A DNA stretch of 64,000 nt, taken from IMG/VR virus record IMGVR_UViG_3300042402_007133, one strand, 5' to 3'. The translations under genes were made by a program, and so were the position numbers. Below, piece by piece: positions 14,201 to 63,745 of the stretch. Positions within the stretch are counted from its first letter, which is position 1; every line of letters starts with the position of its first letter. This DNA comes from an uncultured virus (IMG/VR IMGVR_UViG_3300042402_007133) (taxonomy: Duplodnaviria; Heunggongvirae; Uroviricota; Caudoviricetes). A model generated the notes under the pieces. It saw nothing but the letters and a program-made list of their open reading frames with translations. It was not told the DNA's origin and did not search any database.

Positions 14201-15456
14201 ACATATTCCATCATCGGCATACCGGATTCAACTGTTGGATGGCCTTGTGGTGTTTCGTTATTCTTTCTATCAAATGGTAGAAACGCCGGTGGTAATACTT
14301 TTGCATACGCCTTACCATATTGTGTTGCAATAACTGGTTTATCAGATTTCCAATATGTTGCCTCTTGAAGGGTTGTCGCCAAGAACGATTCACCCTTCTT
14401 CAACATGCGTTCCGGTGCAAGACCAGTTCCATCGCTTCTCATGCGATACATCCTTGTACCATCTTCCAATGCAATGAAGCGAACAACATCACCTCGGTCA
14501 TCCTCGATGCCGATCTCTGCGCCCGACTGTCCAACTCCTGAATTACGAAGCGGTGTATACATCGATGGGATCGTTACAAACTCAGTTCCGCTCATCTCAA
14601 TAGGCAACATAGCATCGTGAACGTTATTGCGAATGAAGTGGGCTTCTGTTGCAAAAATGCCTGATGGTGGAAGAACATCAGGGTAACGAAGGATTGCAAC
14701 CTTAGTGTGCCCTGATATTACACCGACTGGTTTATTGGAACGAATGAGAGTTCCTGAAAGGTCCGTCACCCATTCTTTGTTAAAGTTCTCATCAATCTTT
14801 CCCTTGATGAGATATGTTTCACCCTTATCAAGTGTGATCGTTTGCGATTGTCCTTTAAGCGCACCTGGATTATCATTGCCGCCTTCAGTTGCCCAAACAG
14901 GAGTATATGTAACTACTGTGTTATCCCTGCCTGCAATCAAAAGGATCTGTGATGGACGATACTTGTAATCGCCATTCTGGCCATAACGGTCCTGATACAT
15001 GTTTGCAGTATAGTAATTCTTACCCCATGATTCTATTGGAAGGTGACGGGCAAGCTCGCCATTTCCCATCCAAGCCTGGTATGTGGAAACGGATATTGGC
15101 GCCTTACTTGTAACAAGAATGCCATATCCTGCCTTCGTCTGTGAGTTGACATTCATGTAGATTGTTGACACAGAAATCTTGAGGACCTTATTTGCCTCAA
15201 CAGAATACTCTCTGTCCATCCTTGGATTGTCATTTATGCCAGCTGGAGTCTGTACTCTCACCTTTGTTTTCACCTTTGATGAGATGAACAGCTGCATTGG
15301 TTGAGGAAGGGGCTTCTCTGATGGACTTGCCCAGACCTGTGGAAATGCAACCATATATCTGGTTCCCTCTGTGAGATTTAGTTTGTTTTGGGAGTTCTGT
15401 GTGAACCCCGAAACCGTCATTGCAACGAATGCTAGGACGTAAAGCAATTGTTTCAT
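11218..15456 (-). CDS. Large secreted protein: IgGFc-binding-like N-terminal region, repeated Ig-like (choice-of-anchor D/ASH-like) domains, possible degenerate sorting domain
   Basis: Signal peptide from ATG 15456 (MKQLLYVLAF...); LPIESWGKNY, DLSGTLIRSNKPVGVISGH, SDKPV, AYGTP; NFG/NWG...NxG beta-sandwich repeats. Confidence 0.75.
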   Translation of the reverse strand: MKQLLYVLAFVAMTVSGFTQNSQNKLNLTEGTRYMVAFPQVWASPSEKPLPQPMQLFISSKVKTKVRVQTPAGINDNPRMDREYSVEANKVLKISVSTIYMNVNSQTKAGYGILVTSKAPISVSTYQAWMGNGELARHLPIESWGKNYYTANMYQDRYGQNGDYKYRPSQILLIAGRDNTVVTYTPVWATEGGNDNPGALKGQSQTITLDKGETYLIKGKIDENFNKEWVTDLSGTLIRSNKPVGVISGHTKVAILRYPDVLPPSGIFATEAHFIRNNVHDAMLPIEMSGTEFVTIPSMYTPLRNSGVGQSGAEIGIEDDRGDVVRFIALEDGTRMYRMRSDGTGLAPERMLKKGESFLATTLQEATYWKSDKPVIATQYGKAYAKVLPPAFLPFDRKNNETPQGHPTVESGMPMMEYVPSVDRWTNYGVFHSPEGMDNFLNIVITYTEIGKIKVDGRTLTSAFGGAVRPLQGTPYAFIRTPIGAGDHYIESVDPKVRWCAWNYGSLDGLQQGRAYGTPVSVDLSIPCDDSLDIEYQIVCGDVDGKVKLLPENSTCAQFFAFIVEEENNFVLEADVDNLTEYKAFPFKLNVIDKKLPAFARIRVITRSGNWIEKEFRYDGIDLEFNPKEVNFGTHPIGAKICSTVVVVNKQQTPITLTDLKFSKPNFTVTPNTVTLGPNESKEVQVCGTALSEATSRDTLLANINCVDLKFLPVSIKGDEPLFYASDQNWGVIPSMDKQTKQVELLNAGQSDIIVTEYQPRGDVHFTNSTLIKSLPLTLKPGQRFKYDVDYSPNGEVGVTHKLRIDYTTNATKEKLYSELVGGGSDAQLSVSPFSWTERVIDKYQESKGITRYAGKVTIQNLGNTVSYIEKIVLVGSDAGYFSFTEPVDLRNGMTSNDKKIIDVYFTPTETDGRQSERKFSVDFVVDYRVATDVRQSKSTLEGIALQPMVEITDQDWKSQVVNSVTTLPIIISNRNTKAFAPLTNNEGGTMDLLVDSLVIVGNEPFVWSNTGTKTIRFNPALRVSGLTNEPVFVDFKPTQPGVFRTQYRLYGNVLDTNFATLQGETPGENKVEPVHMITWIGTTTNGTVVGNAAYSTILTFKEFRGGDYLLFNPAQGQSLQPFQVDPTVPFTFNVEFAPDKVTKAGLKAGQNLNGRLPYQDNKFSTQIVFEDLNKNELVGDVTGDGKYLETTLRIVGDKGIEIGKAAKASFFLEPRPESIDSGNVESARLRITYDNNIITPELINQTNFPTATLIDEKTSSGMVEIDLVTTPQVDGFLGTKEFQTLLYSKSVSTVDGLYYTINKADKVASSYVVINVIPDEIAVVPVCANVRRVIDIGSPYGIVVKNNIVEVSVGIDAPLTLTSVNEIGQQEIMFSGFVKKGTYHFSVQKRGLQWIVARQAGWMDTMGIFVD

Positions 15457-15491
15457 AGGCGCTTTATTTTTTGGTATCATGTATGTATAAG

Positions 15492-15866
15492 TTAGCTGTT
15501 CTGCTTTTGCTGCATGTAGCACAGCATTATGTTTGCATAGTTCATTATGTCGACCAAAGTATCCTCAATTGACTCATTTTTAACGCTTGGGTCATTGTTT
15601 TCGACCAAATTTCCTATCCTAGAAAGTTTGTCGCACATCCTCACAAGAATGCCCTTTTCAAGAGGAACTCCGACAGATTCACAGAGTCTGAAGTTTCTGT
15701 AAGGATCATCTATTGTTGCGTAATCCTTTGTCTTGCTTATGACAAGATCTAAAGCATTCAGTGAATTGTTGACCATGGCTGATACAAATATGCCACGGTT
15801 CCCTTCCAAAGAACCCAATTTCTCAAATAAAGTTTCACCCTTTGTTACAGTTGTATTATTTACCAC
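15492..15866 (-). CDS. Nucleotide-modification-associated domain 1 (DUF1599-like) protein
   Basis: KTKDYA, GILVRMCDKLSRI, ESIEDTLVDIMNYA. Confidence 0.75.
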   Translation of the reverse strand: MVNNTTVTKGETLFEKLGSLEGNRGIFVSAMVNNSLNALDLVISKTKDYATIDDPYRNFRLCESVGVPLEKGILVRMCDKLSRIGNLVENNDPSVKNESIEDTLVDIMNYANIMLCYMQQKQNS

Positions 15867-20693: not shown

Positions 20694-21890
20694 ATGCTTA
20701 AATTCAATGATTTTGAGGCACTAAATGAGAAGGCAAACAACGACCTTCCAAACCGTGTCGACCTGCTTGTTAAGGCCTTCACCAAAGAAGAACCGAGAAT
20801 ATCAATGGATCCTTGGCCAGAAAGCGTCACAAAGGAAGGCACAAATGACACATTTTTTGGCATTCGCATGTACCTTGGCGACGTCCTGTTCAGGGTCAAT
20901 TGGAAGAAGGGAACATCTGAGCCTAGCATCATAGACGTATGGGACAACAAAGGAAAGAATGAGATAATGCCTAAGGTATCGATCATTGGAAACTTTGAGC
21001 TCTTCCGCATGGTCACACCAAACCTGATGGATTTGGTAAAATCACTTGCTGCTGGAAAGGAAGTGCCCCAACAAAAGATGGCAATGGCATTTGAAGCAGA
21101 ATCTGCTGGATCTTCTCCAAGAATAGTTCCTGCTCCGCCAGAAGATACCGATGATACCGTTCAGCCTCAATCAGAGTTCAGCGACCAAGAGTTCAGCATC
21201 TTTGATGAGCTAAGGACACTGGTCATAATGGTCATAAACAATGTTAATCCATCCCTGATCATAACAGGGCGAGGAGGAATTGGAAAGACACACACAGTCA
21301 TGAGCACCCTCAAAGAATTTGATCTGGTCAAAGACGAGGAGTATGTGGTTGTAAAAGGCGCATCGACTGCACTTTCCATGTACAAGGAGCTCTATAACAA
21401 CAACGGAAAGATCGTCATATTTGATGACTGTGACAGCATATTCAAGGATGCTGATGGCGTAAATATCTTAAAGGCGGCACTTGATAGCTACGATGAGCGT
21501 GAGATATCATGGCTCTCAAAGTCAACATATGATCCAGCAACACAGTCACCAACAGAGTCAAGACCTGTCCCAAACAGGTTTACTTTTGACGGACAGATAA
21601 TCTTCATATCAAACCTCCCGATGGAAAAGGTCGATTCAGCTGTTAGGACAAGAAGCTATACGATAGACATCAGCCTAACAGAGGAAGAGATATTCAACAT
21701 AATGGAGAAGAACCTTGCAAACATACTTCCAAATGTGGATCTTGCCACAAAGAAGGAAGTCTTCAATTTCATCAAGAATGAATACAAGTCAACTGCTGAG
21801 ACCGCAAATGTAAGGACGCTGATAAAGGCAATAAAGATACGCCTCAGCGGAGCCCCTAACTGGAAGGTCCTTGCATCAAAGTATGCATGA
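20694..21890 (+). CDS. AAA+/P-loop ATPase with N-terminal capsid-targeting-like peptide
   Basis: GRGGIGKT, IFDDCD, NILKAALDS, IFISN; begins MLKFNDFEALNE; AATATATAG at 20659-20667. Confidence 0.75.
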   Translation: MLKFNDFEALNEKANNDLPNRVDLLVKAFTKEEPRISMDPWPESVTKEGTNDTFFGIRMYLGDVLFRVNWKKGTSEPSIIDVWDNKGKNEIMPKVSIIGNFELFRMVTPNLMDLVKSLAAGKEVPQQKMAMAFEAESAGSSPRIVPAPPEDTDDTVQPQSEFSDQEFSIFDELRTLVIMVINNVNPSLIITGRGGIGKTHTVMSTLKEFDLVKDEEYVVVKGASTALSMYKELYNNNGKIVIFDDCDSIFKDADGVNILKAALDSYDEREISWLSKSTYDPATQSPTESRPVPNRFTFDGQIIFISNLPMEKVDSAVRTRSYTIDISLTEEEIFNIMEKNLANILPNVDLATKKEVFNFIKNEYKSTAETANVRTLIKAIKIRLSGAPNWKVLASKYA

Positions 21891-22910: not shown

Positions 22911-23615
22911 TTACTTAAATGATGTCGGAAGGCTGTATGATCCGCTGGATTTTTTACCTCCACTACTCTTTGGTTGTGCTACCTTTGCTTGTGTTTGTTG
23001 CTGCGGCATTGTCTGGCTTGCTGGCTGTGCTGAAACCTGGACTTCTACTGGTTGCAGTCCTATCTTTATGGTAGAAAAGAATTGTGCCCAATCGCTGTCA
23101 AAATCCATATTGAATATGTGCATTCTTTCCTCAAATGATTCCATACCAGTTGGAGTTATTGAATCAAAGTTCTTTGTCTGCACGGCCTTTTTTATAGGAA
23201 GATAAAAGTGATCAATCCAAATTTTGTATATTGCTCCTGAATTTTGTAACGAGTTTGCACCTACAGTAACATAGTCAGGACCATTTCCTACCTCATACTT
23301 CATATTACCTTGTGAGAGAAAATCCTTGAGGTAATCTATCATACCTTTATACTTTGATGTCACTGGAGAAGACCCAAGCAATGCAACTATAAAGTTTTGT
23401 GGTATTATTGAACTATCAACGTTGCTATCCTGAAATACCCACTTAAATGAAGTAAGATCCTTACCTGTTTCTGCCTTAAAAAAATTTATTGCCTTTTGCC
23501 AATATGAAGAATCAGGAGAAATAAATGTATTGTTTGGCATGTACATGCCAATTTCACCTTCATTTAATTCCTGATTAGTATTGAATTGTTCAAATGTCTT
23601 TATCATTGTATTCAT
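22911..23615 (-). CDS. Hypothetical protein, putative head-internal protein
   Basis: Begins MNTMIKTFEQFNTNQELNE. Confidence 0.65.
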   Translation of the reverse strand: MNTMIKTFEQFNTNQELNEGEIGMYMPNNTFISPDSSYWQKAINFFKAETGKDLTSFKWVFQDSNVDSSIIPQNFIVALLGSSPVTSKYKGMIDYLKDFLSQGNMKYEVGNGPDYVTVGANSLQNSGAIYKIWIDHFYLPIKKAVQTKNFDSITPTGMESFEERMHIFNMDFDSDWAQFFSTIKIGLQPVEVQVSAQPASQTMPQQQTQAKVAQPKSSGGKKSSGSYSLPTSFK

Positions 23616-41589: not shown

Positions 41590-41994
41590 ATGACAAAAGT
41601 CTTATTTTTGGTCCTATTCATGGGATCAGTGGTTTGTGGTGCGACCAACTTCCCTAGCCATATCGGCATGGGATCAAAGGCATCAACGGTAGGAAAGATA
41701 TCATCCTACTCGCGCGTAGGCAATGGCCTTTGGACAGGATATTGGAGGCCAAACAACTTCACAGTTTCTGTGAATGAGGAGGTAGTAGCAGGTCCTGCCG
41801 CAAAGGTATGGCCAAACCCATCAAATGGCATGTTCAACATTGAGCATGTTGGAAGCATCAAAGTGTTTTCACAGGTCGGAGCTCTTATGTTCCAGGGTGA
41901 AATTGATGGAACATTTGATATATCAGACGCTCCATCTGGAGTATACTTTGTAATAACACAAGACGGAAAAACAATCAAAATTATCAAACAATAA
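41590..41994 (+). CDS. Small secreted protein with T9SS type-A C-terminal sorting domain
   Basis: Signal peptide; KVWPNPSNGMFNI, DISDAPSGVYFV, KIIKQ. Confidence 0.8.
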   Translation: MTKVLFLVLFMGSVVCGATNFPSHIGMGSKASTVGKISSYSRVGNGLWTGYWRPNNFTVSVNEEVVAGPAAKVWPNPSNGMFNIEHVGSIKVFSQVGALMFQGEIDGTFDISDAPSGVYFVITQDGKTIKIIKQ

Positions 41995-50624: not shown

Positions 50625-50706
50625 GCCCAAATGGCGAAATTGGCAGACGCACCAGACTTAGGATCTGGCGCCGTGAGGCATGGGGGTTCAAGTCCCTCTT
50701 TGGGCA
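50625..50706 (+). tRNA. tRNA-Leu(TAG)
   Basis: Acceptor GCCCAAA/TTTGGGC; anticodon arm CCAGA-CTTAGGA-TCTGG; long variable arm; GGTTCAAGTCC; no encoded CCA. Confidence 0.95.
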
Positions 50707-50737
50707 CGATAGTAAATACACACACAAGGAATTAACG

Positions 50738-51206: not shown

Positions 51207-51279
51207 GCGTGAGTAACTCAGTTGGTAGAGTCATAGCCTTCCAAGCTGTTGGTCGCGAGTTCGAGTCTCGTCTCACGCT
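51207..51279 (+). tRNA. tRNA-Gly(TCC)
   Basis: Acceptor GCGTGAG/CTCACGC; anticodon loop CTTCCAA; AGTTCGAGTCT. Confidence 0.95.
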
Positions 51280-51283
51280 CAAT

Positions 51284-51355
51284 GCAGCATTCGTCTAGGG
51301 GTTAGGACACCGCCCTTTCACGGCGGTAACACGGGTTCAATTCCCGTATGCTGTA
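51284..51355 (+). tRNA. tRNA-Glu(TTC)
   Basis: Acceptor GCAGCAT/ATGCTGT; CCGCC-CTTTCAC-GGCGG; GGTTCAATTCC. Confidence 0.95.
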
Positions 51356-51425
51356 CAAAAAAATATATGCCTAGGAGCTTCCTCTCCTGTCCTTTGAGGC
51401 AGTGACCGAAGCCTGGGTTTCTTTC

Positions 51426-51461
51426 GTAGGGTCCTAGTGCACTGGGGCCCTACTTCTTTTT
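51426..51461 (+). terminator. Intrinsic terminator of the tRNA cluster
   Basis: GTAGGGTCCTAG-TGCA-CTGGGGCCCTAC-TTCTTTTT. Confidence 0.8.
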
Positions 51462-51476
51462 CCAGTAGTATTAGAC

Positions 51477-51485
51477 GATATATAG
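51477..51485 (+). promoter_or_regulatory. Putative late promoter GATATATAG
   Basis: Between the tRNA terminator and the kinase gene. Confidence 0.55.
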
Positions 51486-51540
51486 GAAGTTATATGGCCT
51501 GTAAGGTTATGTAATTGATATAGTTAACATTACTAATAAA

Positions 51541-52965
51541 TTGGAGAACTCAATATCCCAAGAAGAAGCCCATAATATTGAACAACTGAGGCAATTTATC
51601 GATACATCTACCATCATATCAAAGGCAGATGCAAATGGTAAAATAACATATGTGAACAAAAAGTTTACTGAAGTCTCAGGTTACACCTTAGAAGAAATCG
51701 TTGGAAAGAACCATAATGTTCTAAACTCTGGTGAACACCCAAGAGAGTTTTGGTCAGAGATGTACAAAACGGTTGTAAAAGATAGAGGCATCTGGAATGC
51801 CGTATGCACAAATCGTTCCAAGGATGGAAACCTCTATTACGTTGACACCTATATAAAGGCAGAGTTTGATAAGCAGGGGAAACTAATTGAATTCATGTCC
51901 ATACGCCAGGACGTGACAAACATAAAGAAAAAAGAAGCAGAATTCAGAAACCGCATGACCGCCATAAACAATTCAAATGCGGTGATCGAATTTGACACAG
52001 AAGGTAATATCATCTACGCAAATAACCAGTTTTTAAGTGCAATGGGTTATAAAATGGATGAGGTACAAGGAAAACATCATAGAATTTTTGTAGACCTAGA
52101 GTATGCTGAATCTAAAGAGTACGAAGAATTTTGGGAACAACTACGTAAGGGAAATTATATGTCTGGCGAAGTATCCCGGGTTAAAAAGGACGGCTCTCTT
52201 ATACAACTTCAATCCACTTACAATCCCATATTCAATACGTCCGGTCAAGTTTATCGCGTGATGAAAATTGCAGTGGATGTCACAGACAGGCTTAACCAAA
52301 GAAGAGAGATAGAGAAGAAGAACTCCTACCTTGAACATGCTGCCAAGATACTCAGGCACGATATGCACAGTGGCATCAACACATACATACCAAGAGGCAT
52401 TAGTTCACTGGAGCGAAGACTCCCGGAGGAAAAGCAGAAGGACCTAAAGGTAGATGCGCCCATAAAGATGATCAAAGAGGGCCTTCGACACACGCAGAAA
52501 GTGTATAAAGGAGTTTATGAGTTTACCAACCTGGTAAAAAAGGATGTTGTGTTAAATAAGACAATGTGCAACCTCTCAACAATACTTGATGACTATCTTT
52601 CTGCTACTGCATACAGACCACAAGTTATAATTTCGGACCTTGGTGAGTCTGAAGTGAATGAGGCACTGTTTTGTACCGCAATTGATAACCTGATCAGGAA
52701 CGGTTTGAAGTATAATGACAGTCTGAAAAAAGAGGTGCATATACGAAGAGAAGGAGATCTTCTTTTTGTTGAAGACAATGGAAGAGGAATGACGCCAGCA
52801 GAATTCAAATATCTGTCTCAGCCATACACAAGAAAGGAAGGACAGAATGAATCCGGAACTGGCCTGGGTCTTAACATCTGTGTTGCAATAATTGAAGAGC
52901 ACGGGTTTGAACTAAATTGTCAACAAGTTACAACGGGAACAAGGATGGAGATAAAGTTAAAATAA
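51541..52965 (+). CDS. Cytoplasmic PAS-PAS sensor histidine kinase
   Basis: Two PAS/PAC domains (KDG...QDVT, KDG...VDVT); H-box ILRHDMH; N-box NLIRNGLKYN; VEDNGRGM; GTGLGL; TTG start uncertain. Confidence 0.92.
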   Translation: MENSISQEEAHNIEQLRQFIDTSTIISKADANGKITYVNKKFTEVSGYTLEEIVGKNHNVLNSGEHPREFWSEMYKTVVKDRGIWNAVCTNRSKDGNLYYVDTYIKAEFDKQGKLIEFMSIRQDVTNIKKKEAEFRNRMTAINNSNAVIEFDTEGNIIYANNQFLSAMGYKMDEVQGKHHRIFVDLEYAESKEYEEFWEQLRKGNYMSGEVSRVKKDGSLIQLQSTYNPIFNTSGQVYRVMKIAVDVTDRLNQRREIEKKNSYLEHAAKILRHDMHSGINTYIPRGISSLERRLPEEKQKDLKVDAPIKMIKEGLRHTQKVYKGVYEFTNLVKKDVVLNKTMCNLSTILDDYLSATAYRPQVIISDLGESEVNEALFCTAIDNLIRNGLKYNDSLKKEVHIRREGDLLFVEDNGRGMTPAEFKYLSQPYTRKEGQNESGTGLGLNICVAIIEEHGFELNCQQVTTGTRMEIKLK

Positions 52966-52978
52966 CGCAAACAATAAA

Positions 52979-53410
52979 ATGATCGATTCAATTTTGCTGG
53001 TAGATGATGAAAGCCTCTTTCATCTGGTGTTTGAGGATGCATGCAGCCTCTTAGACGTCTCGTTAACACTAGAATGTCTTAGTAGTTCTGATGAAGCTGC
53101 AAGAATATTCGAAGACCTATACAAGAATAAAAAAAACAGGCCCGAATGTGTGTTTGTTGATCTAAACATCATTGGGTCATCATTTGATGGGATTGAACTG
53201 ATCAGAAAGATAAACTATGAATTTGGAAATGGGATGGTCATAGGGATCATATCATCATCAAATGAGCCAGCAGAACAAGAAAAAGCAAAGAAGGCAGGTG
53301 CGCAGTTTTGGATAATAAAATCTGATGATATTGAACCTAGACTAGAGGCATTCAAGAGTGATTTTGAAAAGTTCAAAGACCGCTCCATGCCGTTCAAAAT
53401 TTATTCATGA
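52979..53410 (+). CDS. Single-domain response regulator (receiver only)
   Basis: ILLVDDE, VFVDLN (phosphoacceptor), DGIELI, ISSS, AGAQFWIIK. Confidence 0.92.
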   Translation: MIDSILLVDDESLFHLVFEDACSLLDVSLTLECLSSSDEAARIFEDLYKNKKNRPECVFVDLNIIGSSFDGIELIRKINYEFGNGMVIGIISSSNEPAEQEKAKKAGAQFWIIKSDDIEPRLEAFKSDFEKFKDRSMPFKIYS

Positions 53411-54009
53411 TGAAAGTTGACAAGGCAATTCGTGATTTTCTCATGAATACACAAAGGGAAAAGAGAGTCGTGCTAGAAGGTAGCATACTCAAGCTTATTG
53501 AAGCTGAGGATGGAGATATTGAATTTTCTGCATATCTTAAAGACGCAATTGAGAAAGATAAATTCACAAGAAAAAGGAGACTTGAGGTCACCAAACAGGT
53601 CCAGGAACAAAACACAGAGCTGCTTAACTGGCAAAAAGAAAACCAGGAGTTGATGGATAATCTAAAAACTGCATTATCAGAAGCAGAATCTTCAAGAGCT
53701 CTTGCAGAAGAATCCAGGCTTGATGCAGAAAAGGCAAAGGATGTTGCACTAAATGATCTCGATGTTCTTCAAAAGCGTTCACAAACTGAATTGATAAGCA
53801 CAATAGTGAAAGTTGCATTGGCAGTCATCATTAGTGTCGGTTTTGTGACAACGGCAATGTATGCAATTGCAATGTGGACAGGAAAGGACACCCAGATCAT
53901 TGGTTCTACATGGTCAAATATGTTTGGCATTCTTCTTACGAATGCATTTTCGATTGTTGGGACAATAATGGGCGTAAAATATGCATCAGAAAACAATAGC
54001 AATCAATAG
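53407..54009 (+). CDS. Coiled-coil protein with two C-terminal TM helices
   Basis: ATGA overlap with receiver gene; long heptad region; two hydrophobic segments. Confidence 0.8.
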   Translation: MMKVDKAIRDFLMNTQREKRVVLEGSILKLIEAEDGDIEFSAYLKDAIEKDKFTRKRRLEVTKQVQEQNTELLNWQKENQELMDNLKTALSEAESSRALAEESRLDAEKAKDVALNDLDVLQKRSQTELISTIVKVALAVIISVGFVTTAMYAIAMWTGKDTQIIGSTWSNMFGILLTNAFSIVGTIMGVKYASENNSNQ

Positions 54010-54034
54010 ATATATAGACAAAAATACAACCAAA

Positions 54035-54849: not shown

Positions 54850-56013
54850 ATGAGAGAGAAAGAAATACCCCTGTTTAAGGTCTACATGTCACAGGAGTCC
54901 ATAGATAGAACAGTAGATGTTCTTAACTCAGGATTCATCGGCCAGGGACCTGTTGTTGATGAATTTGAATCAATGTTGAGAGAGCGATTCTCGTGGGACT
55001 ACATCCTGACTGTCAACTCTGCAACTTCAGCAGAACATCTTGCCCTTCACATGTTGAAGGAAGAAGGCAAGACCGTTTTGAATTCAAGCTGGCCAGGAAT
55101 ACAACCAGGCGATGAGATACTTGCAACGCCGCTTACATGCACTGCATCAAACTGGCCTATACTTGCAAATGGATTCAACATCAAGTGGGTCGACATAGAT
55201 CCAACAACGATGAACATGGACCTTGACGACCTTGCAAGAAAGATTGGCCCAAAGACAAAGGCCATAATGATTGTGCACTGGGGCGGATATCCAAACGATC
55301 TCAACAAGCTCAAACAGATCCAAGAGAAGGCAAAAGAATTGTATGGCTTCAAGCCTGCAATAATTGAGGACTGTGCACATGCAATGGGAAGCAAGTTCAA
55401 TGACAGATACATAGGAACTCATGGAAACATCTGCACGTTCAGCCTTCAGGCCATAAAGCACGTAACATCAGGTGATGGCGGTCTTCTCTTCCTTCCGCAC
55501 AATGAATTGTACAGAAGAGGAAAGCTCCTTCGTTGGTACGGAATCGATCGAGAGTCAAACAGAAAGGATTTTCGATGTGAGGCCGACATACCAGAATGGG
55601 GATTCAAATTCCACATGAATGACATAAATGCTGCCATAGGAATGGGCAACATGAAGAAGATCGATGAGATAACAGGAAAGCACAAAAGCAATGCAGCATT
55701 CTATGACAGAGAGCTTGCGGGCGTAGCTGGAATCCAGACGTTGAAAAGAGAAAAGGGGCACGATTCTGCATTCTGGATATACAGCATCCTTGTTGAAAAC
55801 AAAGATGGATTCCAAAGGTGGATGAAGGAGCGTGGCGTTGCAACAAGCCAAGTCCACGAGAGGAATGACATACACAGCACGGTAAGACAATACAAATCAA
55901 TACTTCCAAATCTAGACAAGACAGTACCAATGTTAAGCTCAATACCTGTGGGTTGGTGGCTGTCCGAAGAGGATAGAGAATGGATAGTTGAATCCATAAA
56001 GATGGGCTGGTAA
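54850..56013 (+). CDS. DegT/DnrJ/EryC1/StrS-family PLP-dependent sugar aminotransferase
   Basis: VNSATSA, VHWGG, IEDCAHA, FSLQAIKHVTSGDGG, MNDINAAIG. Confidence 0.93.
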   Translation: MREKEIPLFKVYMSQESIDRTVDVLNSGFIGQGPVVDEFESMLRERFSWDYILTVNSATSAEHLALHMLKEEGKTVLNSSWPGIQPGDEILATPLTCTASNWPILANGFNIKWVDIDPTTMNMDLDDLARKIGPKTKAIMIVHWGGYPNDLNKLKQIQEKAKELYGFKPAIIEDCAHAMGSKFNDRYIGTHGNICTFSLQAIKHVTSGDGGLLFLPHNELYRRGKLLRWYGIDRESNRKDFRCEADIPEWGFKFHMNDINAAIGMGNMKKIDEITGKHKSNAAFYDRELAGVAGIQTLKREKGHDSAFWIYSILVENKDGFQRWMKERGVATSQVHERNDIHSTVRQYKSILPNLDKTVPMLSSIPVGWWLSEEDREWIVESIKMGW

Positions 56014-56014
56014 A

Positions 56015-56611
56015 ATGAAGAATCTTTTAATGTTGCTATTGGCTGTGTTTGCTATACAAACATTGGCTGCACAAAAAAGGGATAGCGTAGTCATAGAGAA
56101 TGACATCTATAAGATAGTGTATTCAGAGGTCCTTGAACAGCCTCTGTACATCAGATACACAGTTCTTTGTCCAGAAGGAACAGCGTCAAGATCCGGAATG
56201 GACTTCTATACAGAAAAGACTGTCCATACATCAGATGGAGAAGACTATGAAAAGAATGTTTGGGACAAGGGACACTGTGCTCCTGCAGCAGACTTCAATT
56301 GCACAAAAGAGATGCTGTACAAAACATTCTCATATGTAAACTGCATTCTACAACACGAGAAGCTTAATAGAGGCGCATGGAGGTTTCTTGAGGCCCATGA
56401 GAGAGAACTGGCAAAAACAAAAAACACCGTTGTGGAAATAAGGGTTGCATTCTCAAAGAAATCAATGAAGCTTCCAACTGGTGCAACAATTCCTGACGGT
56501 TTCTATAAGATGATATACACAAATGGAAATCTTGTTGAATGCTACTACTTTGACAATGCTATACCACCAGAACCAGACTACAACAGATATAAGATGAACT
56601 GTAAAAAATAA
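56015..56611 (+). CDS. Secreted non-specific DNA/RNA endonuclease (NucA/EndoG-like)
   Basis: Signal peptide; WDKGHCAPAADF, LNRGAWRFLE, IPDGFYK. Confidence 0.9.
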   Translation: MKNLLMLLLAVFAIQTLAAQKRDSVVIENDIYKIVYSEVLEQPLYIRYTVLCPEGTASRSGMDFYTEKTVHTSDGEDYEKNVWDKGHCAPAADFNCTKEMLYKTFSYVNCILQHEKLNRGAWRFLEAHERELAKTKNTVVEIRVAFSKKSMKLPTGATIPDGFYKMIYTNGNLVECYYFDNAIPPEPDYNRYKMNCKK

Positions 56612-56619
56612 TACTTAAG

Positions 56620-57561
56620 ATGTTAACGAGAGAACAGACAAACCTTCTTGAAAGGATGAAGACTGATTTAGAAAGGGCAAAAAACCCGTTCTATAAGCCA
56701 AGCGATTTCTTCTGGAAGAGGATAGTTGATGATTTTGAAAGACGCAGATTCAAGAATGAAGGAATTGGAGAGATACAGTCGCAGAGTTACAATGCCTTGT
56801 TTGCATTCTTATCTGGACACAAGTCTTCTCTAACTGGGCACGATAACATAGACTTTGAAATATGTCTATGGACTTTTTATACGCTGCTAAAATCCAGGGA
56901 CAAACATGGACTGTTGGATAAGACAGAAGCCCTAATAGCAACAGATGGGAGCCTATACCTTGACACGGATCGTGTTGTAGGAAGGCCTAGCCATTTAGAA
57001 AAGAAGCGCCTAACATGGGACTATCTGTTCTCAATGGATACAATACTTAGAATAGTTGAACAGTATCCAGAGGTATTGACCGAAGAGCTCAGCATATGTG
57101 AAGTAGGAGCAGGCTGGGGAAGGCTATCCTACTACTTCACCCAAGTCAATAACAAACTGAGATACCACATATTTGACATACCACACGTGCTTCTCATATC
57201 ACATGAGTACCTCGCTAGATCGACTAAGCACACAAGGGTGTTTTCTTATGATGAATCAAGCGTGTCAAGCAACGAACCAGGAATAAAGTTCTTTACATCA
57301 AACAAGCTTGAAGATCTTGATGGAAAGACATTTGACCTATTCATAAATCAGGCATCATTTCAAGAGATGACGCTAGAGCAGGTGACTGGCTATTTTGAAA
57401 GAATAAACGTGCTAAGCAAAAGGTTCTACAGCTTTCAAAGGTATGAGTGTCTAGACATGGAATACAAGAAGTATCCTATTTACCCAAACTGGACAAAAAC
57501 ATATGACGCAGACTGCTGCTTTGATCCTCTTTGGTTTGAACAATTCTTTGTAATAAACTAA
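56620..57561 (+). CDS. Putative sugar O-methyltransferase
   Basis: ICEVGAGWGRL, FDIP, DLFINQASFQEM. Confidence 0.75.
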   Translation: MLTREQTNLLERMKTDLERAKNPFYKPSDFFWKRIVDDFERRRFKNEGIGEIQSQSYNALFAFLSGHKSSLTGHDNIDFEICLWTFYTLLKSRDKHGLLDKTEALIATDGSLYLDTDRVVGRPSHLEKKRLTWDYLFSMDTILRIVEQYPEVLTEELSICEVGAGWGRLSYYFTQVNNKLRYHIFDIPHVLLISHEYLARSTKHTRVFSYDESSVSSNEPGIKFFTSNKLEDLDGKTFDLFINQASFQEMTLEQVTGYFERINVLSKRFYSFQRYECLDMEYKKYPIYPNWTKTYDADCCFDPLWFEQFFVIN

Positions 57562-57574
57562 TTGATAATCATTT

Positions 57575-58381
57575 GTGATACACTACATCGTTGCAGTATT
57601 TACAGGAAAAAGACAAAATAAAGTAATAAATGCCCGTCTTTCTGATCCAGCATATCTTGTCAAGAAGCACCTGTTTGGGTTGGAAACGCTTAAACTTCCA
57701 GATGTTGTAAAGGCAACTTTTGTTGTTAGCCCTTCTGACAATGAAGCTAGAGACCAGGAAGTGGTAGAATATGTAAAGAACTATGATAATAAGACTAGCA
57801 TAGAGATCGATGCGTACATAAAAGAAGACAATCTTCTGTTCTCATATGGCTCGTGGAACGATGCAATGGAAAAGAACATAGAGAATGATGAACACTTCTT
57901 TTTGATAGAGGATGATTACTTTCCGTGCTCGGATAATTTCTATGAGCCATTTGTTAAGAAGATGGAAGAAACTGATTCTGCATATGTTTGTCAGCTATGG
58001 TCTGATAAGTTTCTTAGCAGGCCATGTGCTGCAATAAGCAATGGATTGATGAGCATAGATGCAGCAAGATTCCACCACAAAAAATTTCGAGAGTGTCTTA
58101 ATCTGAGAAAGCTAAAAAATCGTAAAGCCCTTAATCATCAGCAAGGCGTAACTGCTCAGATACACTTCCTAGACGGTTACCAAAAGCTTGCCTTTCCAAT
58201 AACAGACATAGCAGAAGAATACGGTCAGCCGTTTCTTTCTCCAGAGAATCGTGTGTTCATGTATGGAAACAGGGTGAAGGGAATAATGATAAAGTGCGAA
58301 AGCTTTGGAGAGGTAAAGACAGAGCCAGCAACTTATCTACGTTATAGTCAAATAAGAATCACAGGATCAGGAGACGAATGA
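57575..58381 (+). CDS. GT-A-like protein, paralog 1
   Basis: YIVA, SYGSWN, FFLIEDDY, AYVCQL, AISNGL. Confidence 0.6.
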   Translation: MIHYIVAVFTGKRQNKVINARLSDPAYLVKKHLFGLETLKLPDVVKATFVVSPSDNEARDQEVVEYVKNYDNKTSIEIDAYIKEDNLLFSYGSWNDAMEKNIENDEHFFLIEDDYFPCSDNFYEPFVKKMEETDSAYVCQLWSDKFLSRPCAAISNGLMSIDAARFHHKKFRECLNLRKLKNRKALNHQQGVTAQIHFLDGYQKLAFPITDIAEEYGQPFLSPENRVFMYGNRVKGIMIKCESFGEVKTEPATYLRYSQIRITGSGDE

Positions 58382-59142
58382 TAAACTATATTGTAGCATT
58401 ATACGTTGGCCAAAGAGGAAACGGGGCTGTTAGCTCTCTGACAAAGGACCCAACATACATGGCAAAACGCCATCTTGATCTGTTATCATCCTTAAGCGTC
58501 CCTCTGATTAAAAAGGCAACTTTTGTAATATCTCCATCCTCTTCACATGAAGAAGACTTGCGAGCACTTGAGTTTATTCGAGAAAACAAAGTTAGTCTTA
58601 ATGAAATTGAAGTAGATGCATTCATAGGACAGAATAATCACAACCATTCCTATGGATCTTGGAACTTTGCCATGAATAAACACATCAACGATGGGATGGA
58701 CTTCTTTTTGATGGAGGACGACTATTTCCCATCAAGGGATGAGTTTTACATGCCATTCATTGAAAAAATGAATGATAGGATAGCATACGTCTCACAGCTT
58801 TACACGCACACTAGGGAACAGAGAAAGCATGCAGCAATAAGCAACGGTCTTATGAACTATGTTGCAGCAAAGAAGCACCATGAAGAATTTGGAAACTCTA
58901 TATCAATAGAAATTCCTAATAAAAAGCCATATGATGTGGGTGTTTACACCCAACTAAATTTTCTAAAGGGCTATGAAGGTATAGGGTACCGTATGGATGA
59001 TGTTTCAGAAAAGTATTGTCATCCATTTTTACAGAGAAGCAACAAAATAACAATATACGGAAATGTAAAGGGTGAAACTCTGATAGAACCAGTCTTCTAT
59101 GAGGATAGGATAAGAAGCACCTATAAAGTTTTATCAATGTAA
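58378..59142 (+). CDS. GT-A-like protein, paralog 2
   Basis: YIVA, SYGSWN, FFLMEDDY, AYVSQL, AISNGL. Confidence 0.6.
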   Translation: MINYIVALYVGQRGNGAVSSLTKDPTYMAKRHLDLLSSLSVPLIKKATFVISPSSSHEEDLRALEFIRENKVSLNEIEVDAFIGQNNHNHSYGSWNFAMNKHINDGMDFFLMEDDYFPSRDEFYMPFIEKMNDRIAYVSQLYTHTREQRKHAAISNGLMNYVAAKKHHEEFGNSISIEIPNKKPYDVGVYTQLNFLKGYEGIGYRMDDVSEKYCHPFLQRSNKITIYGNVKGETLIEPVFYEDRIRSTYKVLSM

Positions 59143-59158
59143 CCGTCAACTTTAAGAT

Positions 59159-59869
59159 ATGAAATTCTTGATACTACTATTTTACTATGAGAGGCCTGAA
59201 CTTCTTAAAAATGCACTCTCAACTGTAAAGTCCTCAACATATAAGAATTGGGATCTATGTGTGATAGATGATGGAACAAAATTTCCAGCATTCAATGTCA
59301 TAAATGAATGTTTCTCATCAGATGAACGAATGTCACACAAGATAACATACATTCAAACTTTTGATAGTGAGGAAAGGAAGAAGACCAGAGGAGGAAGCCA
59401 GTTTGGAGAGTATGCAAACTCAGCAATAAAGACAAGCGATGCAGACATCGTGTTAATGCTTTGTGATGACGATCTGCTAAAACCAGATTACATGGAACTG
59501 CTGAATGAATTCTACATCAACAACCCAGATGTTAAGTATTCGTATGCACACCTGGACTTCTATGATCCTACAATAGGTCTTCCTAGTGAAAGCAATATGG
59601 TTAGCGATGGATACACAAAGTATCTTGTGAGAAACACACACCCAATAAATCCTGTAAGAAGGCTTGACTCATCACAGGTTAGCTGGAGAAGAAGGAACTG
59701 TTTGGATGATGGGATACTTTTTCCGTGTCCAAGGACATCTAACCTAGATGAAGTGATCTATGGACACATGTATGTTGCATGGGGAGAATGTGTATTCAAC
59801 GGAATAAATGGTCAATGGAAGGGAATACATGAAGGCCAACTAATAAACCTTGCAAGAAAAGATAGGTAA
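59159..59869 (+). CDS. Glycosyltransferase family 2
   Basis: YERP, WDLCVIDDGT, LCDDD. Confidence 0.82.
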   Translation: MKFLILLFYYERPELLKNALSTVKSSTYKNWDLCVIDDGTKFPAFNVINECFSSDERMSHKITYIQTFDSEERKKTRGGSQFGEYANSAIKTSDADIVLMLCDDDLLKPDYMELLNEFYINNPDVKYSYAHLDFYDPTIGLPSESNMVSDGYTKYLVRNTHPINPVRRLDSSQVSWRRRNCLDDGILFPCPRTSNLDEVIYGHMYVAWGECVFNGINGQWKGIHEGQLINLARKDR

Positions 59870-59876
59870 AATAATA

Positions 59877-60698
59877 ATGGTAAATTACATAGTTGCTCTA
59901 TACCTTGGAAAGAGAAGGAATGGCATGGTCCAGGATTGCATGGACAAGGATCCGTTCTATCTCCTGAAGTCACACATGCTTGCGATACACAAGTATAAAA
60001 TGGATGGAATCCATAAGGTGACATTTGTCCTTAACCCGTCAGAAAATAAAGAGGCAGAGGATGCACTAGATTCTGTTTTTCAGGAATACAAGTCACTCTG
60101 TTCAAAGAAGGAAATAGAAATTGAGCTCATTAAAAACCCAGATAACAAGCACATATCATACGGTGCATGGAACTATGGTGTGATGAATGGGCTATCAGAC
60201 GAGAGGACAAAACACTTCTTCTTGTTGGAGGATGACTATGTCCCCTGTTCGGACAACTTCCATCTACCCTATATTGATAGAACGGGCCCGGACATAGCAT
60301 ATGTTTGCCAGCTTTGGACTCCATCATCTCCACAGCCAAAGTCCATACATTCTGGCCGTGTTGCAATAACCAATGGGCTTTTGAATGCAGACATATCAAA
60401 AAAGGTGTTTGAGAAGTATGGAAGATGTTTCATGTTGGATGTAACAGGAGACTATGGGCATCTATCAAAATCAAAGACATTGGACGATGTATCAAAGAAG
60501 TACATCCTTTCTGGTCCTGCACAGAAGTTTTTTGTTAGACTATACCAAGATGAAAACTACAGGATCGTAGATCTTGGTCCTGGGTGGCAACAGCTGTTCT
60601 TAAATTCTAGAACTATAAAAACATATGGAGAAGGAAACCCTGCAACTCTTTATCCAATAAATGAATATGTTCCAATAACACCGGAGTCATTTTTATGA
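59877..60698 (+). CDS. GT-A-like protein, paralog 3
   Basis: Start set at ATG 59877 (MVNYIVA); SYGAWN, FFLLEDDY, AYVCQL, AITNGL. Confidence 0.6.
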   Translation: MVNYIVALYLGKRRNGMVQDCMDKDPFYLLKSHMLAIHKYKMDGIHKVTFVLNPSENKEAEDALDSVFQEYKSLCSKKEIEIELIKNPDNKHISYGAWNYGVMNGLSDERTKHFFLLEDDYVPCSDNFHLPYIDRTGPDIAYVCQLWTPSSPQPKSIHSGRVAITNGLLNADISKKVFEKYGRCFMLDVTGDYGHLSKSKTLDDVSKKYILSGPAQKFFVRLYQDENYRIVDLGPGWQQLFLNSRTIKTYGEGNPATLYPINEYVPITPESFL

Positions 60699-61354
60699 TG
60701 AACATAAAGCTAAGACTGATTGATTACACAGATATCTCAACCATAAACAGGATACGAAATCAATCAGCGTCATACTTACATGATGATAGAACGTTCACCG
60801 AAGAGGAGACTCATGAATGGTGGCTACGATATGACCTAGATTGGTATGCAATAGTTCTAGATGGAGAAATGATAGGATACTTCAGAATATCAAACTACTC
60901 CAAGGAAAACCGAAACCTCTACATAGGAGCAGACCTAGCTGAGGAGCATAGAGGAAAGGGGATTGGGTATGCTGCATATCTGATGATGATGGAGATGTTG
61001 TTCAACCAAAGAAAGCTTAACAAGATAACGCTTGAAGTCCTAAGCACAAATGAAAGGGCATATGGCCTCTACAGAAAGCTTGGATTCTCCGTTGAAGGGA
61101 CAAAAAGACAGGAGGTATGGAGGGATGGAAGATGGGCAGATTCAATTGTGATGTCAATCACAAGGAAAGAATTCATGTCGCTGAACCCACAATCTGTTGC
61201 ATCTCCTTGCATAGGGATATGTCAAAGAGACGGAGACATATGCCTTAGCTGTGGAAGAACCATGGATCAGATAAGATCATGGAAGGATTTAAGCCCTGGG
61301 CAGAGGGCAGATGCAATAAATGAAATGATACAAATCAATGTAACAAAGCCATAA
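60695..61354 (+). CDS. GNAT N-acetyltransferase fused to a DUF1289-like Cys-rich domain
   Basis: HRGKGIG, NERAYGLYRKLGF; C-terminal SPCIGIC...CLSCGRTMDQIRSW. Confidence 0.8.
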   Translation: MMNIKLRLIDYTDISTINRIRNQSASYLHDDRTFTEEETHEWWLRYDLDWYAIVLDGEMIGYFRISNYSKENRNLYIGADLAEEHRGKGIGYAAYLMMMEMLFNQRKLNKITLEVLSTNERAYGLYRKLGFSVEGTKRQEVWRDGRWADSIVMSITRKEFMSLNPQSVASPCIGICQRDGDICLSCGRTMDQIRSWKDLSPGQRADAINEMIQINVTKP

Positions 61355-61396
61355 CTGTTGGCATATAACAAGAACAATAACCAAAAGGAAATACTG

Positions 61397-61660
61397 ATGA
61401 TTTTGGACATTAACCAAAACAATCCCGCTGAACAGGCGCCCCAGATGTCAAGGGAACAAATGATGAATGCAATTAGAGATGCATTTGCAACCCATGCAAC
61501 AGATCTTGCATGTGAAAAATGCAGCAATGATACATTCAATGAAGTGGTCAAGATAAAGAGGTTGAGCGCAATTGCATCTCCAACTGGAGAAGAGATGGTC
61601 CTTCCATTTAAGGTTTTCATCTGTTCAAAGTGCTCAGAGCCTATACCAGATATGAAATAA
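61397..61660 (+). CDS. Zinc-ribbon protein
   Basis: CEKC...CSKC; AAGGA upstream of ATG 61397. Confidence 0.65.
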   Translation: MILDINQNNPAEQAPQMSREQMMNAIRDAFATHATDLACEKCSNDTFNEVVKIKRLSAIASPTGEEMVLPFKVFICSKCSEPIPDMK

Positions 61661-61676
61661 ATTTTTTCTAGTTCTA

Positions 61677-61725
61677 GGGACCGTTTAATTTTGTGCCATT
61701 GCAAGAAATTGACGGTCCCATTTTT
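61677..61725 (+). terminator. Hairpin / probable terminator
   Basis: GGGACCGT...ACGGTCCC followed by ATTTTT. Confidence 0.6.
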
Positions 61726-61771
61726 ATTTCAGAATCAATAACAAAGCTAGACCTAAGGTGATATATAGAAC

Positions 61772-62152
61772 ATGTTAAATTCAGATAAAAATTTTGAAGC
61801 CATGAACATTACTTTGACGATAGCAAGAGTTGCATTTGTAACAGCTGCAGCATTCATCAACCCATGGCTGGTTATTCCTGCTTTCATAATAGCAGAATTG
61901 GTATCGACAAAATTCCAAAACAAGCCAGCGGTTGAGCAACCAAAGGCAGACACAATATTGAACGCAACAGAAGCTTCAGCAGAAGCAATTCAACCATTAA
62001 CACAAGAGCTGGTCATTGAGAAGGTTGAAGAAGTAAAGGCCGAAGAAGAGCCTAAAAAGAAGAGCAGGAAGAAAAGATCATCTAAGCTCTCTGATAACAG
62101 CAGCAACCAGCAGGTAAAGACGTCAAAGCCAAAGGGTAGGCGCAGCAACTAA
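61772..62152 (+). CDS. Membrane protein with basic disordered tail
   Basis: Hydrophobic hairpin; KKKSRKKR; GATATATAG at 61760-61768. Confidence 0.6.
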   Translation: MLNSDKNFEAMNITLTIARVAFVTAAAFINPWLVIPAFIIAELVSTKFQNKPAVEQPKADTILNATEASAEAIQPLTQELVIEKVEEVKAEEEPKKKSRKKRSSKLSDNSSNQQVKTSKPKGRRSN

Positions 62153-62240
62153 AATTAAATAACCAAGTCGTTTAATCGTCGAGCGACCGGAATCTGGAAT
62201 CTTCGGATTCCTTAGTATCACAAAATATTAAGGAGGAACT

Positions 62241-62723
62241 ATGAATTTTCAAAGATACGGCCTAGCTTTAGCTACGCTTTTTCTTGTTTTGATAACAAAC
62301 ATATACGCATTTGACATAGATGTTGAAAGCGTAATGAATACTGCTTTTATGGATTCAATAATACATGTTGAAAGCAGTGGGCGTGATAATGCTGTATCCC
62401 GAGATGGATCTGCTGGACCTTTGCAGATCAAAGCAGTATTGGTCAAAGATGTCAATAGAATACTTGCGCACAGAGGAGATACTCTGAGGTTCAGGATGAA
62501 AGACAGGTTTGACAGGGATAAAGCCATACAGATGTTCTGGATATACCAGAGCTTCTATGGAAAGCAAGGCGACAGCTTTGAGACCATGGCAAGAAGGTGG
62601 AACGGAGGCCCAAATGGACCATCCAAAAAGGCCACAAGAAAGTACTGGAAGAAGGTAAACAAGCAATTGATGCTAAGGGTCAGCAATGACATGGCAACAT
62701 CCCAATCAAGGACAAACCTATAA
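62241..62723 (+). CDS. Lysozyme-like / lytic transglycosylase with signal peptide
   Basis: IIHVESSG, GPLQI, ARRWNGGP, YWKKV; AAGGAGG RBS. Confidence 0.8.
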   Translation: MNFQRYGLALATLFLVLITNIYAFDIDVESVMNTAFMDSIIHVESSGRDNAVSRDGSAGPLQIKAVLVKDVNRILAHRGDTLRFRMKDRFDRDKAIQMFWIYQSFYGKQGDSFETMARRWNGGPNGPSKKATRKYWKKVNKQLMLRVSNDMATSQSRTNL

Positions 62724-63301
62724 TGTTGAAGAGCAGGCTTGCAATAGAAGGGCTTGAAATAATCAAGCCAACAAACCACAGCGATGAACGTGGATTCTTT
62801 TCTGAGATATGGAAGGATGAATCAGGTTTTCCAGAATTCAAGCAGATGAATATGTCTGTAAGCAAGCTCTGTACATTCAGAGGGCTTCACTATCAATGGG
62901 ATAGGCCACAGGGAAAGATGATACGTGTGGTAAAAGGAAGCGCAATATTCTTTGAACTAGATGTCAGAAGTTACAGTCCAACCTTTGGTGAGCATGAGGT
63001 AATTCCATTGAATGGAAAGACGAATGAATGGCTGTGGGTTCCTGCTGGGTTTGCAAATGGTTTCTTCACTCTTGAAGAAGACACACACGTAATGTACATG
63101 TGCACAGAAAAGTGGAGCAAGTGCGAAGGGTCAATAAATCACAACATCCTTGGATACGATTTTAATATGCTTGGAAGCATAAGAAACATATCAGAGAAGG
63201 ATTCCAATGCACCATCGTTTGATGAATCAATAGCACACTTGGAATCAATATCAGATTTTTTCCGCAATGACAGTAAAGGCGTTATAGAGATCAACGCCTG
63301 A
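62723..63301 (+). CDS. rmlC: dTDP-4-dehydrorhamnose 3,5-epimerase
   Basis: DERGFFSE, RGLHYQ, QGK, DVRSYSPTFG, WVPAGFANGF, SEKD. Confidence 0.88.
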   Translation: MLKSRLAIEGLEIIKPTNHSDERGFFSEIWKDESGFPEFKQMNMSVSKLCTFRGLHYQWDRPQGKMIRVVKGSAIFFELDVRSYSPTFGEHEVIPLNGKTNEWLWVPAGFANGFFTLEEDTHVMYMCTEKWSKCEGSINHNILGYDFNMLGSIRNISEKDSNAPSFDESIAHLESISDFFRNDSKGVIEINA

Positions 63302-63745
63302 GACGAATATCTTGTTGAAACTCTTCGTTGATTTTAGATAATCCCTTAGGATGTTTGGAGTAAACATATGTACATGTTTACGATTGTTCCATGGCCTCCA
63401 GTATTCCTGTGAATAGTCAGGAAGATACAAGAACAGAATGCCACCCGGCTTTAATTTATCTGTCCAATATTCCAGTGCCCCTACCCAGTCTGGTATGTGT
63501 TCAAGGCAATGAGAAGAGAACACATAATCCATGTTGGTATATGGAAAGTCTGTTGCGTGGTATTGGTTTATCTCGGGATCTACTGGATAAGATCCAGGAA
63601 ACTTCCATTCCATTCTGTTGCAGCCAACATCAACACCATCACCTTTGCAAACCTCTAGAGCAAATGGCATAACAAACCTTGCCGCAAAGCCATTCGTTTG
63701 GAATGCAGGATATTCGGCTTCATTGAACTTAACAGTTTCTAACAT
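63251..63745 (-). CDS. Class I SAM-dependent methyltransferase
   Basis: GVDVGC, DYVFSSHCLEH, LKPGGILFLYLP. Confidence 0.88.
   Translation of the reverse strand: MLETVKFNEAEYPAFQTNGFAARFVMPFALEVCKGDGVDVGCNRMEWKFPGSYPVDPEINQYHATDFPYTNMDYVFSSHCLEHIPDWVGALEYWTDKLKPGGILFLYLPDYSQEYWRPWNNRKHVHMFTPNILRDYLKSTKSFNKIFVSGVDLYNAFTVIAEKI

Follow-up and report, generated by a model that had tools for sequence, protein, structure and literature searches.

Single-domain receivers such as CheY, which acts on FliM, and DivK signal by protein contact. The timing of lysis in virulent phages is generally attributed to a holin clock, and lysis inhibition in phage T4 is the main regulated case. The available parts of one account describe this inhibition as involving the holin T and the antiholins RI and RIII, with direct antiholin binding upon superinfection (PMC11413866). 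The sections consulted of other sources describe phiCDHM1, which carries AgrD/B/C without the cognate regulator, and VP882, whose VqmA-phage ties lysis to a sensed host cue through transcription (PMC7790227), as well as pelagiphage kinases beside curli genes (PMC9599517) and two-component genes among the annotations of phages that infect ammonia oxidisers (10.64898/2026.05.02.722434). cREC receivers are stated, in the accessible text of a further source, never to occur with histidine kinases (PMC7824862). Here we examined a three-gene cassette in a 64,000-nucleotide stretch of DNA (the window) from an uncultured virus (IMG/VR IMGVR_UViG_3300042402_007133), which is part of the genome of a T4-like jumbo phage. 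The cassette encodes, all on the plus strand, a soluble sensor histidine kinase of 474 amino acids with a TTG start (51541..52965), a single-domain receiver (52979..53410) and a putative effector of 200 amino acids that we call gene 3 (53407..54009). The coordinates and translations of these three open reading frames (ORFs) agree with those in an earlier note made from the sequence alone. Our analysis points to a phage phosphorelay that acts on a membrane protein and, possibly, on the timing of lysis.

Like CheY- and DivK-type systems, the trio combines a histidine kinase containing N, G1 and G2 boxes with an output-less receiver that bears an acidic pocket, a phospho-accepting Asp, a Ser and a Lys. 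Unlike them, it is phage-encoded and nearly absent from bacteria, the DHp domain of its kinase is unmatched by Pfam HisKA, Lys114 of its receiver is followed by Ser/Thr rather than Pro, and the receiver's putative target is an undescribed protein composed of a head, a coiled coil and a hairpin. As in T4 lysis inhibition, a membrane protein of a T4-like phage would adjust the time of lysis under a sensed cue (for the trio, this is our proposal). The T4 system, unlike the trio, has neither a phosphorelay nor a PAS sensor as far as its source describes it, and we found no homology between the two. phiCDHM1, VP882, the pelagiphages and the phages of ammonia oxidisers likewise carry kinases or sensors; none of them, as described there, has a trio of kinase, receiver and membrane effector, and Table S6 of 10.64898/2026.05.02.722434 may list such genes. 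Our literature search, with most subscription journals outside its reach, found no description of a kinase–receiver–membrane protein trio, in agreement with the earlier note, which knew of no characterised phage system of such architecture. Phage-borne kinases and receivers are already known as annotations, and T4 and VP882 provide precedents for lysis under the control of a sensed cue. The literature search turned up no complete relay that would end in a new membrane protein family.

The kinase and receiver retain phosphorelay residues

The kinase has two PAS domains, PAS1 (residues ~18–128, of the Aer/MmoS/NifL type) and PAS2 (~136–250), a divergent DHp domain with H273, and an HATPase_c domain (PF02518, E 1.4e-14); the PAS and HATPase_c assignments are from Pfam. 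In an alignment of 62 kinase cores, from which three truncated rows had been dropped, H273, N387, D412, G414 and G416 (D412-x-G414-x-G416), G441 and G443 were invariant (62/62), and Y429 of the F box was present in 56 of the 62. These findings bear out the soluble two-PAS kinase with intact H, N, G1 and G2 boxes that had been read from the sequence. A predicted AlphaFold2 (AF2) model (pLDDT 87, pTM 0.52) contained two PAS folds, a helical region (helices 248–271, 276–293 and 305–330, with lower confidence there) and an ATPase sandwich. FAD (flavin adenine dinucleotide) redox PAS sensors, namely MmoS (3EWK), Aer (8DIK) and NifL (2GJ3, 9QQ6), were the best sequence and structure matches of the kinase, including 3EWK by sequence (E 1.2e-26) and NifL 9QQ6 as the top Foldseek match of the model. 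Loss of a membrane anchor through an assembly frameshift was excluded: all 11 members of the kinase's cluster are 470–474 amino acids long, showing that the soluble form is genuine, and the kinases of loci L026, L015 and L120 are also soluble.

The FAD pocket of Aer is described, in the portions of the sources at hand, as containing H53, N85 and R115, together with M69 and G28 (PMC9668731), and a Trp on helix F-alpha (Aer W70) as a key FAD residue (10.1101/2023.04.23.537977). In PAS1, H58, N91 and R122 are the equivalents of Aer H53, N85 and R115, as aligned via MmoS. These three positions and the M69 equivalent were invariant in 18/18 phage domains, and the G28 equivalent was kept in 17/18. 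PAS2 keeps the pocket His and has Trp at the W70 position (W198, 26/26); unlike Aer, MmoS and NifL, it has Arg and Ala in place of the pocket Asn and Arg. Both PAS domains of BdlA are predicted to bind FAD, according to the available text (PMC8694187). PAS1 is probably FAD-bound, and flavin appears likelier than haem as the PAS cofactor because both PAS domains find their best solved matches among flavin PAS domains. The earlier note had allowed for either cofactor; the flavin-type residues are kept, and haem found no support. The photoactive Cys of LOV photoreceptors lies within an N-C-R motif. A LOV photoreceptor, of which this Cys is the hallmark (10.1101/2023.04.23.537977, in the part consulted), was excluded, as both PAS domains have His at that position (H58 and H180).

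Some observations weigh against a conventional, redox-sensing kinase. The protein did not match Pfam HisKA at E<=0.1, the helix of the monomer model is broken at 272–275, and the adenine-stacking Trp is replaced in PAS1 by Tyr75 in 18/18 domains, although the position remains aromatic. In addition, several relatives have a kinase without a PAS domain, so redox sensing is not the family-wide input. Unlike Aer, MmoS and NifL, the relatives of the phage kinase swap in other sensors: two membrane helices with one or two PAS domains, a GAF domain, a periplasmic coiled coil, membrane helices alone or, by reading, a HAMP-like membrane sensor. Sensing of redox or energy state, as first suggested, would fit the PAS1 residues here and does not extend across the family. 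Tandem kinases precede a single receiver in L006, L016, L070, L072, L076, L078 and L083; the second of these carries either a signal peptide or a membrane anchor, together with a coiled coil in the periplasm, and a secreted protein sometimes lies between both kinases.

The receiver matched PF00072 above the cut-off (34.6 bits), with D61 as the phospho-acceptor. In 26 receivers of 64–84% identity, D9, D10, D61, S92 and K114 were invariant (26/26), and all 26 were 142–145 amino acids long with no attached output domain, just as the DD, D, S and K residues and the missing output domain had been read at the outset. Five longer forms occurred among 8000 scored receiver candidates; three were kinase fusions, and no DNA-binding Pfam was listed for the five. 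The natural kinase–receiver fusions P0400 and P0401 support cognate pairing of kinase and receiver; the P0399 fusion may be a frameshift artefact. A PF00072 search missed five genomes known to carry the receiver and was therefore insensitive here. We regard a functional phosphorelay as very likely.

The trio is almost confined to viral contigs

Gene 3 matched 252 viral loci, and we analysed the best 80 of these. The receiver lay directly 5′ of gene 3 in 78 of the 80 (75 by script and three in which the match runs up to the start); 73 had the kinase as well, and six of the other seven loci are cut by the contig end. The trio was intact in 73/74 evaluable viral loci, with L024, which has gene 3 without kinase or receiver nearby, as the sole true exception. 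Among 31 further contigs, 27 had all three labels, two (L161 and L162) had receiver and gene 3 without a kinase, one was cut and one had a receiver left unlabelled by the ORF filter. The profile scan that yielded these contigs showed the head of gene 3 to be encoded in at least 521 viral stretches. By contrast, 50,697 GenBank phage records contained no match to gene 3 or the receiver, and gave only generic matches to the kinase core, below 32% identity. There were no matches to gene 3 in plasmids, and a metagenome scan with the head–kinase fusion described below returned five generic kinases only.

A receiver scan of GTDB, sensitive to close relatives alone, found four loci (L083–L086). L083 has phage-type topoisomerase genes and neighbours common to the viral loci, the L084 contig reads as a large phage, and L086 is a 2-kb contig. 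L085 is clearly bacterial, with type IX secretion system sorting domains (Pfam) and, by reading, SusC/SusD-like genes; the receiver occurred in 1 of 301 genomes of its family. The trio is almost confined to viral contigs. The third gene was therefore conserved beside its partners and the trio was not mainly bacterial, the reverse of the two outcomes that had been named beforehand as speaking against the earlier note. A PhoH scan, intended as a neighbourhood control, gave one locus and was dropped; the contig of that locus (42% complete) lacks gene 3. In one 483-kb genome (G325; L161, L177), receiver and gene 3 lie near 30 kb, and a kinase–receiver pair is found apart from them, near 427 kb.

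Domain swaps suggest that gene 3 acts after the receiver

Gene 3 consists of a head (residues ~1–72), a coiled coil of variable length and a two-helix membrane hairpin (~130–195). In the head, E24, G25, K29, D51, R55 and R58 are invariant. Its predicted AF2 model has a long helix (38–158), a turn and a further helix (163–198), and hydropathy peaks of 2.2 and 1.8 mark two hydrophobic helices. The kinase and receiver genes are separated by 13 nt, and the stop codon of the receiver overlaps the start of gene 3 (ATGA). The translationally coupled coiled-coil protein with two membrane helices noted earlier is thereby confirmed. Homologues of about the same length numbered 5848. Gene 3 matched no Pfam, PHROG, NCBIfam or PADLOC family above the cut-off, and its model had no fold match at E<=0.001; matches in the ESM Atlas were limited to unnamed viral clusters, and the automatic 'GLE1-like' label attached to them had no Pfam support.

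Residues 1–95 of gene 3 matched 129 representatives: 35 have a hairpin match as well, and many of the rest are fragments. In six of the 129, the head caps a second, conventional HisKA-type kinase. In L085 (G012 contig C58:5709-9090), a kinase and the same receiver are followed by such a head-capped second kinase, in the gene order of the window. Because the head here sits on a kinase directly behind the same receiver, it behaves as an input module. L085 may itself be a receiver-controlled kinase cascade on a Bacteroidota chromosome. The reciprocal arrangement appeared among longer homologues: in the 120 listed of 800, the hairpin was present in all, the head in one, a PAS2-type domain in 112 and GAF in seven. 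Fused straight to PAS or GAF sensors without the head, the hairpin therefore behaves as an output. Four contigs with this fused sensor–hairpin form, only one of them near complete, had no receiver match. Receiver and gene 3 are adjacent even in L161 and L162, which lack the kinase. The simplest reading is that the head would take the receiver's signal and that the hairpin would be the output, and gene 3 is likely to be the receiver's target. The relay to a membrane protein suggested earlier gains support to the extent that the domain swaps put gene 3 after the receiver in the order of signalling.

Lysis-gene neighbourhood and alternative explanations

We propose that PAS1, probably FAD-bound, would report on redox or energy status in the infected cell and govern autophosphorylation of H273, as its residues suggest. 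Phosphate would then pass from H273 to D61 of the receiver, in keeping with the invariant motifs, operon order and natural fusions. The receiver would bind the gene 3 head, and the resulting change would run down the coiled coil to the hairpin, as the domain swaps imply. Finally, the hairpin would gate endolysin access as a regulated holin or an antiholin-like brake, a step to which the gene neighbourhood alone points, and the burst would come earlier or later according to the state of the host. What we observed directly are genes, motifs, conservation, swaps and neighbourhood statistics; the biochemical steps are all inferred from them.

We pooled 110 loci into 48 lineages at 85% identity and sought a muralytic gene within 2.5 kb. 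At least one member had such a gene in 31 lineages, and five lineages were too short (31/43 evaluable). At 75% identity, 12 of 23 lineages had a muralytic neighbour, eight had none and three were too short. The adjacent genes belong to five enzyme families and a PHROG endolysin family, and lie on either side of the cassette. For GH19, we searched 15 long contigs, which were chosen by length but after the neighbourhood table was known. Nine had one match; six of these matches lay within ~2 kb of the cassette and the others at ~10, 55 and 81 kb. With the window included, GH19 was within ~2 kb in 6/10 contigs compared with 0.58 expected (P ~4e-6 ignoring kinship). The fused sensor–hairpin form had GH19 as a direct neighbour in 6/6 loci (~3 lineages).

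Several observations weigh against a role in lysis. The GH19 P value is overstated because the lineages are related. Twelve of the 43 evaluable lineages have no muralytic neighbour despite adequate flanks, as do 8/20 at 75% identity. The unlinked lineages include L021, L026 and the 20-locus L027 group, and L021 and L026 supply two of the three receivers that group with that of the window (99/95). In the window itself, the GH19 endolysin, an M15 peptidase and a weak SLT match are 40.7 kb, 10 kb and 8 kb from the cassette, so the link to lysis that had been suspected holds family-wide and not beside the trio in this genome. Muralytic genes are also not rare (three above the cut-off and one weak in the 64-kb window), and several loci already have an annotated holin. 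The hairpin matched none of the described holin families in Pfam, PHROG, NCBIfam or fold searches, and comparison with neighbouring holins and holin candidates gave hhalign probabilities of ~1% or less; the description of gene 3 as holin-like found no support in these sequence and structure searches. Holins are usually variable, unlike this near-invariant hairpin.

Further genes were observed in these neighbourhoods. Small unannotated two-helix membrane proteins, c14 and c17 (for example, L069:5785-6033 and L071:5247-5489), are holin candidates that often adjoin cassette and endolysin and are mutually homologous (hhalign 95.7%); the hairpin resembles them by eye, and kinship with them was excluded by hhalign. 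A YceI-family gene (Pfam E ~1e-44) lies between GH19 and kinase at L111:3166-3702 and between kinase and receiver at L155:4021-4545, and L112 and L113 have similar-sized genes at the position of the former. YceI binds isoprenoid quinones, which would fit redox sensing.

The main rival, which we judge unlikely, keeps the same relay and wiring and has the hairpin either block superinfection or bind a conserved membrane machine of the host (for cell-wall synthesis, division, respiration or secretion), with closeness to lysis genes reflecting shared late expression. The second helix of the hairpin, where 24 positions in 162–193 are identical in 51/51 sequences, looks as expected of a surface with a fixed partner, but the 51 aligned sequences are the best matches, so this conservation is inflated. 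The lack of holin similarity and the distance of the trio from lysis genes, here and in the 12 unlinked lineages, also fit this rival, as does the position of the cassette or gene 3 just 5′ of a T4-type late sigma factor gene (phrog_234) in L021, L022, L024 and L026. However, the adjacency is specific to muralytic genes, across their several families and on either side, and is kept by the fused form.

A clearly improbable alternative is that gene 3 anchors the relay in the membrane or modulates it, and that the targets of the receiver are host proteins (in signalling or motility, or a host kinase). Single-domain receivers commonly serve as sinks or connectors, and head proteins can belong to signalling, given the head on a kinase in L085. 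The kinase–receiver pair of G325 has no gene 3 within its surrounding 4-kb locus, and gene 3 of L024 stands without either partner. Nevertheless, the sensor–hairpin fusions, which lack kinase and receiver, make sense only with the hairpin as output, and the cognate receiver is nearly absent from bacteria, as the GTDB counts show. A recently captured or decaying bacterial operon without a role in infection is highly improbable and already largely refuted: there is a version on a Bacteroidota chromosome (L085), and the GC content at third codon positions of the trio (0.34–0.41) is below that of four replication/metabolic genes (0.48–0.50), but in hundreds of viral loci the frames are intact and the catalytic residues invariant, the head of the bacterial version is followed by a kinase rather than the hairpin, and the neighbouring phage gene has a similar value (0.42).

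Our preferred reading remains a redox-sensing relay in which the hairpin would influence when lysis occurs. That lysis is the event under control is somewhat probable; taken together with the likelihoods of the relay and of gene 3 as its target, this leaves the reading as a whole a little short of an even chance.

Transcription unit and genome context

An intrinsic-terminator-like hairpin (51426..51453, plus strand; 12-bp stem, seven G–C pairs and a T-tract, a consensus match only) closes the upstream tRNA cluster, with tRNA-Gly and tRNA-Glu at 51207-51356, and corresponds to the upstream terminator seen earlier. A GATATATAG motif, a probable late-type promoter, lies at 51477..51485 on the plus strand, 64 nt 5′ of the kinase start. 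No terminator was found at the 3′ end of the three-gene unit; instead, a second GATATATAG (54009..54017, plus strand) overlaps the gene 3 stop codon (54009) and starts the next unit. The first gene after it (211 amino acids, from 54035) had no homologue among 82 cassette loci. The intergenic stretch 51357-51545 has a better fold than its shuffled versions (z -3.6) and contains additional hairpins next to the terminator. An ORF of six codons (51494-51514) follows the motif and precedes the kinase start.

GATATATAG occurs seven times in the window compared with 0.28 expected, a number reached in 0/100 shuffles, and all seven occurrences are intergenic. One exact match precedes a Pfam-named virion gene (tail lysozyme), one the kinase and four unnamed genes; the remaining one points off the window. 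A relaxed motif lies upstream of the tail sheath gene and before none of nine hand-picked replication/metabolic genes. The tail tube, terminase and GH19 genes, possibly internal to operons, lack it as well. The claim that the motif precedes structural genes is therefore only partly borne out, by tail lysozyme (exact) and tail sheath (relaxed), as four of seven exact matches precede unnamed genes. In L012, the same motif precedes the kinase. The T4 late promoter box, with the consensus TATAAATA, has no match in the window, where a different ATATATA motif fills intergenic sites. From the intergenic enrichment and the contrast between sheath and replication genes, and given the lack of a TATAAATA match, it is reasonable to infer, and no more, that GATATATAG is a late promoter. 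Genes at 20694, 22911-23615, 34665, 36771, 48501 and 54035 start with a similar 'K/N-x-F-x-x-F-x-N-E' peptide, most of them behind the ATATATA motif; we presume a resemblance to the head-packaging leaders of T4-like phages.

The window also encodes tail sheath and terminase (Pfam), tail tube and head closure proteins (PHROGs) and genes that, from their translations, we take to be polymerase, clamp loader and ribonucleotide reductase. tRNA-Leu, tRNA-Gly and tRNA-Glu (50625-50707, 51207-51356) flank a probable lipoprotein gene directly 5′ of the cassette; tRNAs alone exceeded the Rfam threshold in the window. Downstream, 54850-63745 is a sugar-modification cluster with a DegT aminotransferase, a non-specific endonuclease and, by reading, several glycosyltransferase-like, acetyltransferase-like and epimerase-like ORFs. 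Our guess at the host is Bacteroidota, on the basis of the lone bacterial relative of the cassette. Large secreted proteins of host type at 11218-15522 and 41590-41994, whose translations resemble Bacteroidota surface proteins, are a further host hint.

Discussion

With more doubt than assurance, we suggest that many lytic aquatic phages may run their own phosphorelay, or a one-protein sensor–hairpin shortcut, that would read host redox and gate lysis post-translationally through a new family of signal-controlled holins or antiholins, and that the head may constitute a new domain for receiver binding, shared with bacterial kinases. The trio is found in hundreds of viral contigs yet in none of the GenBank phage records, and all three genes are testable without phage culture. 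If this proposal is true, the head would represent a new receiver–output interface, and gating of endolysin access by the hairpin, should it occur, would make the system a new kind of lysis control. Virulent phages would then sense host physiology and act on it without transcription, through a kinase relay of their own with swappable sensors.

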